A DNA stretch of 63,045 nucleotides, counting the filler, from Collodictyon triciliatum (lineage: Eukaryota): the NCBI GenBank assembly GCA_043381765.1. It is 15 parts of 15 records of this genome, joined end to end, with 100 filler letters (N's around TTAATTAATTAA, not from the genome) between each part and the next. Parts side by side here need not be neighbours in the genome. Positions count along the whole stretch, not along the records: positions 7,851 to 12,090 come from JBHJMP010006337.1; 14 more parts are not named here. One strand, written 5' to 3'. Each line of letters begins with the position of its first letter. Positions within the stretch are counted from its first letter, which is position 1. Under the pieces are notes generated by a model that was not told where the DNA came from, made no database searches, and saw nothing but the letters and a program-made list of their open reading frames with translations. Shown one piece after another: positions 3,552 to 55,325 of the stretch. The position numbers and the translations under genes were made by a program.

Positions 3552-3956
3552 CAAGGCAGTCATTGATACTTACCGAATGGACACTCCAAAGCGAAGGTAT
3601 CACAAGAACCATCGCCCACCAAAGATAGTCCGTTTATCCCGCCCCAGCCTGTCGCACCGAGAACCAAGGAGCTAGAGCAAATGCCACGAGTTGAATCCAA
3701 GCTTGCAACTCCACACACCAAAGACAGTACGAGCAAGCAGAAGCGTATGTTTCTAAAACCACAAACACTTAGCCATACACCGGTTAGGCGAAATCCACTG
3801 CCAAATACGCATGGTTCTGAAACCAGGGGACGGTCAAGCGCCACTTCCGTGAATACCAGACAAACAACGACATATCGCTTTCTGTCAGAGTCGCCCAGCA
3901 AGAAACGCAAGGAAAGTGACCTGTCGTCCCCTCAAAAGACTCATCCTGTGGAATGA
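3552..3956 (+). mobile_element. 3' fragment of the dispersed ORF1-like family (subfamily B): disordered tail and ORF end
   Basis: Clearly homologous DNA to 18049-18318 (shared blocks such as ctccaaagcgaagg, cgcaccgagaaccaaggagc, gcgtatgtttctaaaaccacaaac). It continues to ...RQTTTYRFLSESPSKKRKESDLSSPQKTHPVE*. Confidence 0.75.
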
Positions 3957-4244
3957 GATAGGATGTACGGCTTGTTCGAGATAGATGTTTGAAAGGTCTT
4001 ATCGGATTCTATTCTTGAATTAACAGCCATGCGCTTACTTTCATCGACCCGACAACTTTATCCGCTCTTTTACAAGTGTCGGACACAACCAGAAATCGCG
4101 TTGGAGTTGAATCACCTGGGAAGAATAGTCTGCGTGTGAGATCACTTTCTCTTTTTCTTTTTTCTTTTTTCTTTTTTCTTTTTTCTTTTTTCTTTTTTCT
4201 TTTTTCTTTTTTCTTTTTTCTTTTTTCTTTTTTCTTTTTTCTTT

Positions 4245-7850: not shown

Positions 7851-8151
7851 CTTCGATCTCGTCTGGTTTAATTCAACCATCGATCTCTTCGATCTCGTCT
7901 GGTTTAATTCAACCATCGATCTCTTCGATCTCGTCTGGTTTAATTCAACCATCGATCTCTTCGATCTCGTCTGGTTTAATTCAACCATCGATCTCTTCGA
8001 TCTCGTCTGGTTTAATTCAACCATCGATCTCTTCGATCTCGTCTGGTTTAATTCAACCATCGATCTCTTCGATCTCGTCTGGTTTAATTCAACCATCGAT
8101 CTCTTCGATCTCGTCTGGTTTAATTCAACCATCGATCTCTTCGATCTCGTC
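7851..8151 (+). repeat. Perfect 36-bp tandem array CTTCGATCTCGTCTGGTTTAATTCAACCATCGATCT, 8 full copies plus 13 bp, truncated by contig start
   Basis: Units start at 7851, 7887 ... 8103, with a partial unit at 8139. No spacers. Ends 11 bp upstream of the ATG at 8163. Confidence 0.97.
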
Positions 8152-8162
8152 GGGAACAACTC

Positions 8163-9386
8163 ATGGAGCCCAACTCGAGTGTGGAGGTCGAAAGCGAAAG
8201 CTTGAGACAAACACACTCGAACGCACGAGAATCGAGGACACAACTCGACCAAGGCCCCTCGGCCACACCGATCCGCCGATCAAAGAGAGCCCAGGAGCAG
8301 AACCTGTACGGAGCCGGCTGCTACGTCCGCCTTCGAGGTAAGCACAAACTGCCCCAGAACCACGAAGCCCGCAACCAAGCGAAGAAAGAACTCGCCCAAG
8401 TCCTTAAACAACTCAAGTGCTACGAGGAGAACGTGATCATGCAACTCTACGATCAACCCCAAGGATACACAGTAGCCTTCCCGCACCAAGAAAACGCCGC
8501 AGTTTTTGCCAAAGCAGGACAGTTTAAACTGCTTGGCCGCTTTTTCCGCCCATACCAAGAGAGGCCACCTCTTCACTCCGCTATCATCGGCGATATCCCC
8601 CCAGGCTTCACCAAGGCAGACATTGAAGAGGCCTGCAAAGTAACATTCTCGCCTGCCATAGTTTACTACGAAGCTGTGGACGGTATCTGGACTAATGACG
8701 CGCTGGTCAAGTTCCCGGCATCAGAACTACCCAAAGTGCCAAAAAAGAAAATAAACCTGCAAGGATTCTCTGTCCCCTTCATACTCCTCCCCGAACGGAA
8801 GGAGAAGCCCAAACACGATACCAAACATAACAAGCACCAGGGTAAATACCACGGTAAACCCAACCGCAAACCCTCGCAACCCACGCAGTCCAGGGGTGAA
8901 AGACGGGCCCAACCCTCCCGGACACCATCACCCGAAGCCATGGAAGACGAGGACGATGAACCACCTCAGCCCATTACCGCCACCCAACCAAGAAGCTCCT
9001 CTCGCAAGGAACTCCCAAAGAAAGCAAATGAGACTTTGGAAACGCGCATCATCCTGAAATCAACCGAACAAATGGAGCAAGGCTCAGCGTCTTCGACTGG
9101 AAGAACCCCTGAGAGGAAGACGACTACACCAAATACACCAGCAGCAAACCCGAGCTCCAAACACCAATCTAAACCACCGAGAGTAGAAAGACCTTCATCT
9201 GCGCCTCAATCCAACTCGTCAAAACAAACGAACATAGCCAGCTTCATGCTCCATAGGAGCCCTGATGTGACCCCAGCAAAGCACGTGCAAAAATCGAATA
9301 GCCCTAAAGAAGCAAACTCCAGCAACGACTCGCTCTATCTCTCACCTGCGTCCCAAGAGACAGTGGCTGAATCAAAAACACCCTAG
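8163..9386 (+). mobile_element. Intact intronless 407-aa LINE-ORF1-like protein (two putative RRM-like domains plus P/S/T/Q/K-rich tail), subfamily A
   Basis: Long uninterrupted ORF in an otherwise intron-dense genome. The AIIGDIPPGFTKADIEE...GIWTNDALVKF...VP.KINLQG pattern recalls L1/Tx1 ORF1 RRMs. Homologous segments occur at 17129-18318, 25202-25700, 29533-30035, 54800-55325 and 3552-3956. Confidence 0.65.
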
Positions 9387-9876
9387 GGTAGCGCCAGCTT
9401 CATGCCCTGAATGAATTCTCTCCATCAACTGCTTATTCGGACTGACAAGAATATGGTAAACATAGAAGGCATCAAGGCTGTCTTAAAGGTTCAAAACGTC
9501 ATGAGTTTTTCGTTTTGTTTTTGTTTTGTTTTGTTTTTGCAAATAGATTGTGGTGCACAACAATCAAGGCCATTTATATATTAAAAGACAAAAATTTACA
9601 TCGCTTGGATTTGAAGAATTCTTGTAGATGGAAACAACAACAACAACAACAACAACAACTAAAAAAAAAAACATCTAAACGAACTGGATGTCTCAATAAA
9701 GTTCCTCAGAATCCCCGTAAGACTTCAGACTGGTATGAGATATTTTTATCCGCAAAGAACCAACAAAAGAGATTCAGCTCACACTACCTTTATCACTACT
9801 TGCAAGTTTGGAAATGAATCTGAATGAAAATGTGTGATAAACTCGCCGAAGCAAGTTTGTGATTGTCTCAAAATTA

Positions 9877-24258: not shown

Positions 24259-25201
24259 GGTCCCTAGTAAGAAACGTGGGTTATATGACTTGCTTTGCCT
24301 GGCTGGGTTTTCCAACAATCGCCCGGAGACTGCTTTGTGGGGTGCGAGAGCCGCGCTTCGGACAAAGAGCTGGTTTTCTGTTCCTCAAATGCACACACAT
24401 GGGGAGGTTTGATCCGCTCAGCGGCGGTGTTTTTCTACGGGCGGCACAGACTCTGGCGAGACTGCGGCATGGGACTCTGCTTTCTGTTCTGATTCATGGC
24501 ATTCGTGTCCGCTTCGACACATCAAAACGTGTGCGCTTTGTTGAATCTGCACAGGATCTCATTTGTGAAATGGATCAAATGGAAACAAATGGAATCAAAT
24601 AAAACAAAACCCCAAAAAATAAAATAAAGAATAATTCAAGTATTCTTCCATTCAATGAAAGTGTACCATTCCAGAAAAAAAAAAAAAGAAAAAGGAAGCT
24701 CTGTTAGTCACACGTAGCAAAAGCTCGCAAAATGGTAGTCAAGTCGGCTAATAATTAGCGCCAATGGCTTAAGGTTCTCTAGAAAATTAGGCAAATTTGG
24801 ATTTTTGGGTATAATATATTGTGTCCTCAATGGGGACATGTTTTTGCTTCATTTGGTTTATAATTTTCCAGATTTGATTAACATAGTCCGAGAAAGGCGT
24901 CGGTTACCAACAACCCGAAACTGTCTTTGGCATCTGCTGCCGGGGGACTGAGGCCGAGAATCATTTCCCGCACGCACGTACTGATCCCGTCTCGATCGAG
25001 TGCAAAAAAACCAAAAAACCAAAAAACCAAAAAACCAAAAAACCAAAAAACCAAAAAACCAAAAAACCAAAAAACCAAAAAACCAAAAAACCAAAAAACC
25101 ANNNNNNNNNNNNNNNNNNNNNNNNNNNNNNNNNNNNNNNNNNNNTTAATTAATTAANNNNNNNNNNNNNNNNNNNNNNNNNNNNNNNNNNNNNNNNNNN
25201 N

Positions 25202-25700
25202 GGCGACGGGCTTTGTTTGTGTCCGCTGTGGGGCGGCGTTGGGTGCGGCTTTGCCTGTGAGTGTGCCTGCCGAGTTGGAGGGCACGTTTGGGTCTTTGTC
25301 CGCAGCGGAAGAGGGAGCCTCTTGTGGAGTCTTTGGGGTTGGCGGGGGGTTTGCCAGGGTTGGTGTGTGCGCTGACTCTGGAATCAGCACGAGCTGTGGT
25401 GTGGCTTCGCCTTTGTTGTGGGGCAAAGCGCTCGGCCGTCTTCCCTGCGCGGGTACGCAAGGCCCAGGCCGCTCGACAGGTCGGATGCCAGCAGCACAAC
25501 GCCCTCTGTGGCGCACTCGCGGGTGCGGTGGACTTAGCATAGCTGCTCCAACAGACGCAGGCGTGTGGTGTGTATCAGTGTCTCAGTGTACCCGCCCACA
25601 AGGCGCACCACGCAGCCGGCCAGGTAGAGTCCCTTCTGCTGCAGCCCCGCTGCTCGCTCCACCGGTCGCGTCCGGTAGTGCTCGTAGACCATTCTCGTCG
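25202..25700 (-). mobile_element. Degenerate divergent ORF1-like family copy (subfamily C)
   Basis: RAAGLQQKGLYLAGCVVRLVG...C*...ECATEGVVLLASDLSSGLGLAYPRREDG aligns with RSKRAQEQNLYGAGCYVRLRG...KCYEENVIMQLYDQPQGYTVAFPHQENA of the 8163 ORF. It has an internal stop and is followed by a P/T/A/S-rich tail. Confidence 0.6.
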
Positions 25701-25937
25701 CCAAGTTGAGGCTTGGTTGCTATTCGTGTAGTTTTTGTGCAAAACCAAAGCGGCACCGAACACAACCTACCTTTAAATAAAGCGCATGAAGAGATATACA
25801 TATTCTCGTTTGGACCAGAAAAACAGAACTTCGAAGCCATTATTTGGATGCTTTGTGTGTAAATGACTCGAAAAAACAACCAGGAAAAGAATAAAACCAT
25901 CTTTCTTGTTCAAATAAAAGTGCCATACACGCCGAGT

Positions 25938-29532: not shown

Positions 29533-30035
29533 TCGTTGTTCGCGGCTGGCGGACGCTCTTTGAGGATGCGCTTTGGACACTTTTTGCCCATGACCGTAAA
29601 CTTTGCAGGGAGCTGGTTCTTGTGGCAAAGAGGCTTCACCACGGCCGTGTATGTGAAGAAGCCTTTGTCCTTTTTGATCTCCACGTGGGTCGGTCTGAAC
29701 GGCTTCAGCTCCTCAGAAATAAGTTTCGGCCACACGTTCAGCGGTAGTTAGTAGAGCATCACCGAGGTCTCTGTTGGTTTTCTTCTGCTGAAGCTGATTG
29801 TAATATCGCTCAAACTTACCTGCTTCAGCTCTAGAAGCTTTCGGGCGTTTTCTGCAGTGCGGAAGGCGATCAGGAAAAGGCCTTCGCTGTCCGGTAAGCG
29901 CCATTGGATGGACTCTTCGCAAAGTTTGTTCGCTTTCAAGAAGGAGGCGAGCGCATCTGTTAGCCTGCGGGCCTTGTTCTTGTTATAAACGACTTGCTTG
30001 ACACCGTGCAAAAATACTGTCCACTCAAACAGACG
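29533..30035 (-). mobile_element. ORF1-like family copy (subfamily B), with premature stop, truncated by contig end
   Basis: Aligns base by base with 17232-17735 (high identity by eye). CAA->TAA at about 29748-29750. Confidence 0.85.
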
Positions 30036-37126: not shown

Positions 37127-38377
37127 GTTGCTCGCGAATCTGAGGTCAGAGTTTTTGAGTATGAGTTGCTTCTGTGTGGTCTGTTATGGTGTGCTGGGGC
37201 GATTCGTTCGAGCACAGCCATGAAGAGGCGAGTGATGTCGCTGTGGCTGGTTTTAGTTTGGCCCAGGATGTGTCTTGTCGTCAGAAATGGTGAAGTTGCC
37301 CGCGGCGTTTCGATCGAGGTGGTGTTGATTCCTTTCACGAGTTTTTCACGTATTCCAGCGAGGTCAACCCCCTTAACACCTGGTTACTTTAGAGAAAACG
37401 GTATCGGTGTCGCGCTCGTAGGAAGAAATTATTGATCTGAAATCTGGGACAGTATAATTTCACCCGTAAAATTCCCCGACAAGAGTAATGATGCCAAAAT
37501 TGCTCAGAGACCACAGACATAATGCGGAATTTATAACTATTTAAAAACACATAGCTTCATACTTGGTGCTATAAGTATATATAATCCAAAAGTATATCAA
37601 GCTATATAAATTAATATTCTTGATATAAAAAAAGAACTACTTGCGACTAGTACATCAGATACAGAGACGAACTGACATTTCGCGCAAACCTGCCGCAGAG
37701 CGCCACCCTATTCCTCCAATACAGTGGGAAATGAATCCATTGGTAGGCCGCAACCTTGCTAGTAAGAACAATATAAAAATATAGATAATTGTATAATATT
37801 ATCAATATTTAGAAAATTGGTCGTCAAACAGAAAATATATGCTGATATTGATATAAATTCCATTTATATTATAACTCCACATTCGGTCCAAAAGTCGGAG
37901 TTTGTTCAATCTCTGTGTGTTGAGGTGCTACTTATTCGCTGGCTTCCAAACAGGAAAGCTAAAGCAGCGGAAGGATTAAGGCTCGAGACCTGAGAATCAT
38001 AAGGAAAAGAAGAAAAGAAGAAAAGAAGAAAAGAAGAAAAGAAGAAAAGAAGAAAAGAAGAAAAGAAGAAAAGAAGAAAAGAAGAAAAGAAGAAAAGAAG
38101 ANNNNNNNNNNNNNNNNNNNNNNNNNNNNNNNNNNNNNNNNNNNNTTAATTAATTAANNNNNNNNNNNNNNNNNNNNNNNNNNNNNNNNNNNNNNNNNNN
38201 NTTGGTTTCTTTGGTTTCTTTGGTTTCTTTGGTTTCTTTGGTTTCTTTGGTTTCTTTGGTTTCTTTGGTTTCTTTGGTTTCTTTGGTTTCTTTGGTTTCT
38301 TTGGTTTGAATTTTGGGCAAAAATGCAAATAATAGTAAACTTTTATATTCTTTCCTCTGTCATTAATGTGACATACC

Positions 38378-41303: not shown

Positions 41304-42283
41304 TCAGTGTGTCCAGCGGCGGTCGGCGTTTGCGTGGAACGACCTGCGGGCGTCCTGGCTGGGGCGGTAGCGGCCGGGGCCGGGGACGCCGTTGTCTGCG
41401 TGCTGGTCGCTGGCCAGGCGCGGGGCGGCCGAGACAAAGACGCTGTGGCTGCCGCCTTTGCCGGGTGCGTCCCACTGCAGGGGCGTGAGAATCAGCAGAG
41501 GGGCGTGAGAATCAGCAGAGGGGAGTGAGAATCAGCAGAGGGGAGTGAGAATCAGCAGAGGGGCGTGAGAATCAGCAGAGGGGCGTGAGAATCAGCAGAG
41601 GGGCATGAGAATCAGCAGAGGGGCGTGAGAATCAGCAGAGGGGCGTGAGAATCAGCAGAGGGGAGTGAGAATCAGCAGAGGGGAGTGAGAATCAGCAGAG
41701 GGGAGTGAGAATCAGCAGAGGGGCGTGAGAATCAGCAGAGGGGCGTGAGAATCAGCAGAGGGGACGCGTACGGTGTCGCGGTGCTGGTACTGCCCCGGCC
41801 CCGGAGCCTCGTGCTTGTGCATTCTGCCCTCAGAGCGGCTCAGCATGGCGCCCTTCTTGAGCCTTTGCGGGTGAGGTGTGAGGTGTGAGTGTGGGTGTGA
41901 GAAGCGGATGGGGGTGTCTGCCGCCTGTGCGGGCTGGGCAGAGACCTACTTCGAATACGGGTTCGTCACGGCAATGGCGGGGGCCTAATGGCAGGGCGTC
42001 AGAATACACAGCAGCCGTGCACACATGCGGTCATGGCAGATGGCAGATGGCGATGGGATCGGCACATACGTTCTCCGAGTGGGCGTCGCTCTCGTACGTC
42101 CCTGGGCCCGGCACCTCCTTGTTTCTCGGCTCCCTGCGCCACGCGCAAATCAATGGCAGATAAAATCGTGACACGGCATGCAAACATATTCGGGGGTCTC
42201 GAACGGGGCAAATGTGAAACAAAGCTGACAGTGATGCGCTGCGGTTCGTCCGGGACTGGAAGACTGAGCTGTGCGGGTTCGTC
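41304..42283 (-). CDS. Sperm-tail PG-rich (SHIPPO/STPG) repeat protein, 3' exons
   Basis: Three PGPGxY motifs in separate exons (VPGPGTY, APGPGQY, VPGPGRY), FxS..R motifs, and terminal SFHANADRRWTH*. Confidence 0.8.
41481..41760. repeat. 20-bp minisatellite GGG(C/A)GTGAGAATCAGCAGAG x14, filling the last intron of the STPG-like gene
   Basis: 14 consecutive units between the donor GTACGC (about 41771) and the acceptor CTGCAG (41475-41480) on the minus strand. Confidence 0.97.
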
Positions 42284-43056
42284 CTACAGGCGACCCAAGA
42301 TGCGCAGTCACAACCAGTGTGTGGTAGGTGAAGAAAACAGGCAAACAAACAAACAAACAAACAAACAAACAAACAAACAAACAAACAAACAAACAAACAA
42401 ACAAACAAACAAACAAACAAACAAACAAACAAACAAANNNNNNNNNNNNNNNNNNNNNNNNNNNNNNNNNNNNNNNNNNNNTTAATTAATTAANNNNNNN
42501 NNNNNNNNNNNNNNNNNNNNNNNNNNNNNNNNNNNNNTTTCCAAAAAAAAAAAAAAGACAAACACGCATGGCTAAAATATACTCCCTCCTAAGACCCTGC
42601 ACATTCACTGCTCTTAAAACACAATCGCTTCGCGTGTAGGTGGCGAAGGTCATCAGAGAACGAAAGGCATCATCCATGGGGAACTAAGTGCGTTACAGGG
42701 CTCCTGGTTCAAGATTAAAAACCTTTGGCAAAAAAGGAATAAAAAGCTGCGAGATGGAAACAATCGACACATAGGTCGAGGGAAACAAGACAACTTCATC
42801 TGTTTCCATCACCACATAGTCAGCATCGCCCTACACCAACTCTGCCTCATCCAATATTAACCCTGTTCGCACCCACACGATTGCCATTGCGAAGATACTT
42901 TCATTATTATTGCTATTATTATCCCTTGATTTTTTGAATTGTTTTTTTTTCTCCTTCTTTTCTATCAGCTTATCAATGTGCTATTTAATGGGTGCGCACC
43001 GCTCCGTCCAGAGCCATTTTACGGTGTTGCCTTGGGCAAACTGGGCTGCTTTCTCC

Positions 43057-54799: not shown

Positions 54800-55325
54800 A
54801 CATTGTTTGTCCACATTGTCTTAGGGTGAGTAACGATTCCAATAACCTGCACATTCCTTGAAGAACCCTTTATTGGGTGGTGGTGGCAAGTTAGGGTGCT
54901 GATTTTCCTCCTCAATTGCTTCACACGGTTGTGTTTAGAAGGGGTTGATGTTTCGTTTTTTTCTGCTTGACCACTCAGTTTGTGAAATCTCGCAGTGGTG
55001 TTAATCATGAGTATCTCATTTCTTTCTCTGTAATTCCAGCAGGGTATGAAAGGAAGAGGAAATCCTTGCATGTTTCTTTTATTATCTGGTAGTTTAGGTA
55101 CTTTTGATGCCGGAAACTAGAAAAATGCATTATTCATCAAAACAGTTTTAAGCTTTGAAGTATAATGAGAGATATGACTTTCATTTTCATGTACCTTCAA
55201 TATCGGCCATGGTGGAACCAGGAGGAATGCCGCAGATAATAGCAGAAAAAAGGGCTGATTACTCTTCGAATGGTTGAATTAAAAAGAAAGACTAAGCATT
55301 ATTACACTTTCCCATCTCGACATGC
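54800..55325 (-). mobile_element. Old AT-drifted copy of the ORF1-like family (subfamily A)
   Basis: QPFEE*SALFSAIICGIPPGSTMADIEG and NNAFF*FPASKVPKLPDNKRNMQGFPLPFI align with RPYQERPPLHSAIIGDIPPGFTKADIEE and NDALVKFPASELPKVPKKKINLQGFSVPFI of the 8163 ORF. Confidence 0.85.

Follow-up and report, generated by a model that had tools for sequence, protein, structure and literature searches.

A dispersed, apparently lineage-restricted repeat family encoding a predicted two-RRM protein in the protist Collodictyon triciliatum

We describe a family of dispersed repeats in a 63,045-base stretch of DNA (the window) from the protist Collodictyon triciliatum, NCBI GenBank assembly GCA_043381765.1. The window is not one locus but 15 joined contig pieces of ~4.2 kb each, delimited by 28 runs of 44 N that occur in pairs, each pair flanking a spacer of 12 bases in which every frame contains a stop; one further gap consists of 908 N. 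Six of the 15 contigs carry pieces of one protein family, here called copies A to F, and by sum of parts these make up ~4.4 kb of the ~60.7 kb of non-N sequence, or ~7%. The reading that we tentatively favor, with a confidence that falls a little short of even, is that the family is a dispersed, lineage-restricted selfish repeat that was probably moved in trans. The unit would be one intronless gene of ~1.2-1.4 kb, and the protein that it is predicted to encode has a short disordered N-terminus, two RNA recognition motif (RRM)-type domains and a long, charged, Ser/Pro-rich tail, with no enzyme and no zinc knuckle.

Membership was assessed by tblastn, blastn and blastp within the window, together with bridging through public fragments and one intact relative. 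An earlier reading of this DNA made from the sequence alone, which we refer to as the original prediction, had placed homologs of a 407-aa protein (copy A) at five other sites, and all five are true relatives. Its description of three divergent subfamilies at mixed stages of decay also holds, as protein identity between subfamilies is 24-41% and the copies range from open to truncated and AT-decayed. The A subfamily comprises copy A, the decayed copy D and the public sequences P0001 and P0002, with P0003 as a cousin (41% identical); the B subfamily comprises copies B, E and F and public P0005 to P0008; and the third subfamily, C, comprises copy C and public P0004. Across both predicted domains the subfamilies can be aligned in collinear order, and they also have the acidic and Pro-rich features of the tail in common. 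The intact relative, P0005, is a B-type protein of 399 aa that represents 11 member sequences and matches the 407-aa protein with an E-value of 4e-9 and 27% identity over 217 aa. Long open frames are found in two subfamilies, namely the 407-aa frame of the A type and the 399 aa of P0005 in the B type. When 2443 six-frame pieces were searched with a hidden Markov model (HMM) of the family, there was no match at E <= 0.1 on the other nine contigs; the rows used to build the HMM match it by construction.

Self-blastn of the window revealed no similarity between the flanks of different copies, indicating that they are not segmental duplicates. The neighboring genes also differ among copies, and include USB1, GT61, an alcohol dehydrogenase (ADH)-like gene and a zinc-ribbon gene. 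In addition, contigs 7 and 8 begin within copies C and E, respectively, which fits a repeat that confuses the assembler. Beyond this genome, relatives are scarce. An exhaustive search of 1.84 billion protein representatives of all lengths gave only four matches, which are fragments of 73-169 aa. An alignment-based search of a word-indexed protein set gave six family matches, and the word-indexed search with the 407-aa protein gave 0 of 2459 candidates scored. Judged by these searches, the family is nearly absent from public protein sets and appears to be lineage-restricted.

The 407-aa protein had been described as two compact alpha/beta domains followed by a disordered tail, and structure prediction agrees with this description. 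In an AlphaFold2 model of residues 1-230, computed from a 10-row family alignment, the first 46 residues are disordered and are followed by two beta-alpha-beta-beta-alpha-beta domains and then by disorder. The predicted local distance difference test score (pLDDT) in 10-residue blocks over aa 50-210 is mostly 76-91 with dips to 59-63, and is <50 in the modelled part of the tail (aa 213-230). No long helix precedes the first domain, and the model contains no coiled coil and no C-terminal domain (CTD). Foldseek comparison with the PDB gave 96 matches at E <= 0.001 (best E 1.9e-5). All 48 of the PDB matches listed are tandem-RRM proteins aligned over both domains, including Hrp1, hnRNP A1 UP1, IMP3 RRM12, NONO, HuR, nucleolin and TDP-43, with low TM-scores (0.23-0.31 on the query) and sequence identity of 10-15%. 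At the level of fold only, the predicted structure is RRM-like, with two RRMs. The original prediction had invoked the RRM domains of L1/Tx1 ORF1 proteins; the fold matches are to cellular tandem-RRM proteins, no sequence link to any LINE ORF1 was found, and L1 ORF1p is not among the 48 PDB matches listed. The absence of a CCHC knuckle was predicted correctly: all 11 family sequences lack the pattern C-x2-C-x3-5-H-x3-5-C, and there are only three Cys in the 407-aa protein.

The order of features in the tail is kept between the A and B types although the sequences differ, running from a basic stretch through acidic, Pro and Ser/Thr/Lys-rich parts to a C-terminal motif. This motif, Q-x-x-[IM]-x-x-F-[ML], occurs once per tail, at aa 355-362 of the 407-aa protein (9225-9248) and aa 369-376 of P0005, and shuffled sequences produce it at rates of 2.5% and 3.1%; copy F has at ~3858-3881 a variant that fails the pattern. 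We presume a resemblance to the PCNA-interacting (PIP) box. Language-model neighbors of the A and B types fall into the same arthropod and chordate clusters (0.91-0.93), and lower neighbors (0.86-0.89) into clusters with RRM_1, PRE_C2HC, DUF4780 and, for B only, zf-CCHC, all of which are leads only. The cluster with RRM_1 (18% of members) scores only 0.88-0.89 and is likewise a lead, not evidence.

No reverse transcriptase (RT) was found with the copies. Stop-to-stop frames of at least 55 aa were scanned, dropping those that contain X or in which three residue types account for at least half, which gave 146 frames of at least 85 aa and 248 of 55-84 aa. At E <= 0.001, RT, endonuclease, integrase and transposase families were matched by 0 of the 394 frames across the whole window, and in the flanks of the copies, on the copies' strand, none of 93 frames of 40-84 aa matches such a family at E <= 0.01. 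A fused RT-bearing relative was sought in the word-indexed search, in which 8000 candidates of 714-2035 aa were scored and none was related, a result that the tool itself rates as weak evidence.

The six copies differ in how much of the gene they retain (Table 1). The original prediction took the open reading frame (ORF) of 407 codons to be intact and to be followed by about 120 bp, simple repeats and then the 3' end of USB1. The frame is open from its ATG as stated; however, ~100 of the 120 bp 3' of it are family sequence, and since the similarity of copy A to the B type runs past the TAG, the ORF may itself be a shortened form. The USB1 assignment was confirmed on the minus strand by a Pfam HVSL match at 11133-11384 (28.7 bits, cut-off 26.8) and a second, weaker HVSL piece at 10790-11056. 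The 3' side of copy A also has a (TTTTG)n microsatellite, T-rich and not A-rich. The tandem array immediately upstream of copy A contains eight exact 36-bp units, with none elsewhere in the window and 0 expected by chance; the array may act like a promoter at the 5' end of the element, or may be no more than a minisatellite.

Copy B is a member of the family as proposed, but it is more broken than was described. It has a TGA (17984-17986) where P0005 has an Arg, a compensating pair of frameshifts and a further frameshift, and it lacks a counterpart of the ~40 final codons of P0005. Head-to-head with copy B, ~115 nt from its ATG, lies a GC-rich frame of 142 aa (16610-17035, minus strand) that has no Pfam match and may be either a host exon or a part of the element. 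Copy E is 90% identical to P0005 aa 1-159 in a single frame with one in-frame stop. Its DNA similarity to copy B starts ~25 nt before the first shared codon, and on its 5' side the loss is limited to the upstream leader. Copy F is a 5'-truncated copy, and the only one of the six with an intact ORF end. It has 87% DNA identity to copy B over 252 nt and 78% protein identity to the final 127 residues of P0005, with the same last residue. Its 3' flank consists of only 190 nt of unique sequence, followed by a (TTTCTTT)n microsatellite, again T-rich and not A-rich, and the contig end.

The two remaining copies were linked to the 407-aa protein by tblastn. Copy C matches at 25441-25716 on the minus strand (E 1.1e-8, 31% identity over 77 aa), is 85% identical to the public fragment P0004, and continues beyond RRM1 as a low-complexity stretch up to the contig start. 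Copy D matches in two frames at 55045-55288 (E 5e-11), and its limits beyond the tblastn matches were read by eye; upstream of it, the contig ends in a microsatellite with a 10-bp unit. The surroundings of copy D are ~30% GC and many of its differences from copy A are changes from G/C to A/T, as would be expected if an old copy had gradually taken on the base composition of its surroundings. An AT-rich gap in copy D was considered as an intron and rejected by eye, as it can still be aligned with copy A coding sequence. Taken over the whole family, truncation is found at both ends, at the 5' end in F and at the 3' end in B and perhaps A, and copies C, D and E run into contig ends.

At the DNA level, copies A and B share a conserved element. 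Its local alignment score is 69, compared with a mean of 18.5 (standard deviation 2.3, maximum 29) in 300 shuffles. The best local score for the rest of the A and B ORF DNA is 24, so that outside the element the two are unalignable as DNA. The TAG of copy A falls within the element, where copies A and B also differ by an indel of 1 nt; in addition, both have a TGA at one and the same codon, for which P0005 has an Arg. In the frame of the 407-codon ORF, 9426-9485 corresponds to P0005 aa 250-269, a 20-residue peptide with 65% identity. The shared TGA possibly reflects two parallel CGA-to-TGA changes, or a stop that is meant to be there. The 5' break of copy F falls within the last dozen bases of the element, and the similarity of copy A ends within ~12 nt of the start of copy F. 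Short-word blastn against the other contigs, with the element or with the copy A 3' region, matched only copies B and F. An RNA fold of the element is unsupported (consensus -5.7 kcal/mol, 16 pairs, 2 of them compensatory, from two sequences only). More speculatively, the element is a candidate cis signal for copying of the family RNA.

Table 1. Coordinates of the family copies and associated features in the window
Feature	Position	Strand	Remarks
Copy A, A subfamily	8163-9386	+	407 codons open from ATG
36-bp tandem array	7851-8151	+	8.4 copies, 100% matches; contig start to 12 nt before the copy A ATG
Predicted RRM-like domain 1, aa 54-130	8322-8552	+	AlphaFold2 block pLDDT 63-88; Foldseek
Predicted RRM-like domain 2, aa 137-208	8571-8786	+	AlphaFold2 block pLDDT 59-91; Foldseek
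Long tail, aa 209-407	8787-9383	+	Basic stretch, acidic patch, Pro run, Ser/Thr/Lys-rich part
Conserved DNA element, copy A	9377-9484 (108 nt)	+	Straddles TAG at 9384 and TGA at 9408
Conserved DNA element, copy B	17954-18060	+	Internal to B-type coding frame
Copy B, B-subfamily pseudogene	17150-18361	+	blastp vs 407-aa protein E 1e-4
Copy C, third subfamily	25202-25735 (firm similarity 25387-25719)	-	Start region and RRM1; stop, frameshift
Copy D, A-like	54880-55300 (firm 55045-55288)	-	Heavily decayed, AT-enriched; ~aa 115 to Pro run
Copy E, B subfamily	29533-30034	-	92% DNA identity to copy B over 503 nt; cut by contig start
Copy F, B subfamily	3552-3956	+	Last 127-129 codons, frame open, own stop

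Given these features, we suggest that the family would have spread selfishly, with its own mRNA as the most likely intermediate. This RNA would be coated or chaperoned by the protein, as is done by the ORF1p of a long interspersed nuclear element (LINE) or by a Gag protein, and the copying would be performed by the RT of an autonomous element located elsewhere in the genome. That mobility may be through RNA is argued by analogy, and the combination of an RNA step with an enzyme supplied in trans would parallel HAL1 in mammals and HeT-A in Drosophila.

HAL1 carries the L1 ORF1, which has a coiled coil, a single RRM and a CTD, and has L1-type tails and target duplications. It is recognizably L1-derived, whereas the family described here has two RRMs and has no coiled coil, Transposase_22 match, A-tail or known parent; even with the E-value limit relaxed to 1 or 10, Transposase_22 was not matched by the 407-aa protein, copy B, P0003, P0004 or P0005. 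The likeness lies in a non-autonomous repeat that has only an ORF1-type RNA-binding protein and takes its enzyme from elsewhere; HAL1 encodes only ORF1p and arose several times (PMC5753468). HeT-A is similarly an ORF1-only element of the non-long-terminal-repeat class, and can outnumber its RT-bearing relatives (bioRxiv 10.1101/445429). However, its protein is a Gag of the jockey/TAHRE lineage, in which ORF1 combines an RRM with CCHC (PMC4120745), and it forms head-to-tail telomeric arrays, whereas the copies here are interspersed by ordinary genes and have no CCHC. Among LINE proteins more broadly, Type I ORF1p has one or two RRMs followed directly by CCHC knuckles and occurs in the I, Jockey, R1, Tad1, plant L1 and L2 clades, and Type II, the L1 ORF1p, has an N-terminal coiled coil, a single RRM and a C-terminal domain (PMC4120745). 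The tandem RRM-type domains predicted here resemble Type I, but the knuckles, any sequence match and an ORF2 are missing; Type II differs in its coiled coil, single RRM and CTD, where our model has two RRM-like domains and then disorder. The family thus fails the defining tests of both known ORF1 types. A further parallel is provided by the EKA effectors of Blumeria graminis, whose genes and gene fragments derive from ORF1, are very numerous and are scattered across the genome (PMC4641428); their copies are traceable to full LINEs of the same genome, whereas no parent element is known for the family here. In searches of open-access text on ORF1 and ORF1-only elements, which were not specific to this organism, no description of a knuckle-less two-RRM ORF1-only family was found.

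Several observations weigh against a selfish element moved in trans. No poly(A) or A-rich tail is visible at the copies, and the microsatellites that follow A and F are T-rich; similar microsatellites are common throughout the assembly and end most contigs. No target-site duplication, common terminus or defined end is visible in the six copies, and because no two copies share a 3' end, target duplications could not be sought. The proposal of a HAL1-like mobile family is upheld only in part: the copies are multiple and dispersed and have no RT signal beside them or elsewhere in the window, but a tail, target-site duplications and common termini are not visible. Copy B is 3'-truncated by comparison with P0005, and target-primed copying does not predict loss of the 3' end; copy A may be 3'-truncated as well relative to the longest family version. 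Between copies B and E there are 14 synonymous and 25 non-synonymous differences, which is close to neutral, but the comparison is uninformative about selection because both are pseudogenes. The structural neighbors are cellular RNA-binding proteins, the fold model rests on few alignment rows, and a B-type model is too poor to count as confirmation of the fold (mean pLDDT 47.5, second domain <50). No member matches any Pfam family, those of ORF1, Gag and RRM proteins included, at E up to 1 to 10, and searching PDB sequences with the family profile gave no ORF1p, only two matches at E 1.5 and 2.6. Finally, any genome copy number is an extrapolation from these 15 contigs.

The selfish-repeat reading can be pushed further, to a new Gag-only retroelement that has a knuckle-less two-RRM protein and no curated relative, is the commonest interspersed repeat of its host and outnumbers its RT source, and uses the 108-nt element and the shared TGA as a recognition or recoding signal. 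We consider this extended version somewhat unlikely. It is also unlikely, in our judgment, that the copies belong to a host multigene family of RNA-binding proteins, duplicated or retro-copied and accompanied by many pseudogene fragments, that is not itself mobile. Such a family would account for the structural neighbors listed, all of which are cellular tandem-RRM proteins; Hrp1, hnRNP A1 UP1, IMP3 RRM12, HuR and NONO are the best structural matches (E 1.9e-5 to 2e-4, probability 1.00). It would also be compatible with the lack of visible ends, tails and target duplications, and with some single-exon host genes in the window, such as GT61 (403 aa); several other ordinary eukaryotic genes there are split into short exons. 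The ordered tail features and C-terminal motif kept across subfamilies would suit a cellular interaction role. However, cellular tandem-RRM proteins are encoded by conserved single-copy genes and not by decaying dispersed repeats, and RRM_1 is unmatched by family members at E up to 10. Six pieces in ~60 kb on unrelated contigs are far denser than is usual for a host family, most of the pieces are truncated or decayed, and contigs break inside copies. Moreover, the near lack of relatives among 1.84 billion representatives argues against a conserved cellular gene.

We think it rather improbable that the copies are ORF1 of an ordinary autonomous LINE-like element whose ORF2 was not captured on 4-kb contigs. 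The original prediction had relied, among other flanks, on those after 9386 and 18318 to exclude an apurinic/apyrimidinic endonuclease and RT (APE/RT) ORF. That no such ORF is present among the 394 frames was upheld, but the argument from these two flanks is weaker than it seems. Compared with P0005 and copy F, copy B stops short, and the similarity of copy A stops in the shared element, so the sequence beyond is not the element's own downstream part; the absence of ORF2 after A and B is therefore not decisive, because B is 3'-broken and A may be. This leaves room for an ordinary LINE, as does the fact that the one copy with an intact ORF end has so short a unique 3' flank. Language-model neighbor clusters with PRE_C2HC (77% of members), DUF4780 (93%) and zf-CCHC (12%) point the same way at 0.86-0.87, as leads only. 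A better argument against an ordinary LINE is that six ORF1-like pieces and 0 RT pieces are found in ~60 kb. Copying of a LINE with 5' truncation would be expected to give more ORF2 than ORF1 pieces, and the observed ratio is the reverse. Both flanks of copy B (0.6 kb upstream and 2.4 kb downstream) are devoid of an RT or endonuclease domain, and neither the longer proteins (weak evidence, as noted) nor the exhaustive search, with its short fragments, yielded a relative of the kind expected. Least probable of all, and in our view very doubtful, is amplification of a gene or its fragments by a DNA-level element (a Helitron or Pack-type transposon) or from an integrated virus: truncation at both ends as in captured fragments, coinciding breakpoints of A and F and the lack of A-rich tails would fit, but only short, low-identity pairs of terminal inverted or long direct repeats surround copy B, and the window contains no match to a transposase, helicase or viral family. 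What a viral structure library yields is limited to giant-virus RRM proteins of a generic kind (best E 1.4e-4). In addition, a two-domain frame has stayed collinear in three old subfamilies, and long open copies exist in two of these, which argues that selection acted on the protein itself.

The remainder of the window contains ordinary genes and abundant simple repeats. Pfam identifies USB1/HVSL, GT61, an MFS transporter, ataxin-2 Sm/LsmAD, eL28 and OSCP, as well as an ion channel, SURF4, an AtuA-like domain, an eIF2B-epsilon-like hexapeptide domain and the ADH-like gene. At the start or end of most pieces lies a simple or tandem repeat of ~100 bp, as is typical where contigs assembled from short reads break off at repeats; perfect microsatellites of ~100 bp occupy contig ends at 4146-4244, 16332-16428, 16529-16603, 25005-25101, 38004-38101 and 42342-42437. 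Homopolymers of 74-138 nt also occur inside contigs, for example an A-run of 138 at 22859-22996 in the region of the MFS gene. The genome is thus extremely rich in simple repeats, which explains the fragmentation of the assembly. Downstream of the eL28 exon, on a contig of 52-58% GC, a 20-bp unit is repeated 14 times in tandem with 97% matches (41479-41763). A 232-aa open frame at 12564-13259 (minus strand) consists largely of a 12-nt repeat (array 12975-13160) that encodes His/Gln/Arg/Lys repeats, and has no Pfam match. GC content per 2-kb window is lowest, at ~20%, near the 908-N gap (56-59 kb) and reaches 58% at 40-42 kb, indicating either a strongly heterogeneous genome or contigs of mixed origin.

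To our knowledge, ORF1-only elements have so far been recent offshoots of well-known LINEs, as HAL1 is of L1 and HeT-A of TAHRE. If the family in C. triciliatum is indeed a selfish repeat moved in trans, it would mean that a gene for nothing more than an RNA chaperone can live off the enzyme of another element over long periods, keeping only its RNA-binding protein while its subfamilies diverge down to ~25% identity and come to occupy several percent of the DNA sampled here. The ORF1 catalogue would also gain a new protein architecture. On the practical side, because public sets hold fragments of the family as 'hypothetical proteins', it would need to be masked before gene annotation, and together with the ubiquitous simple repeats it helps to explain why the assembly of this genome is so shattered.

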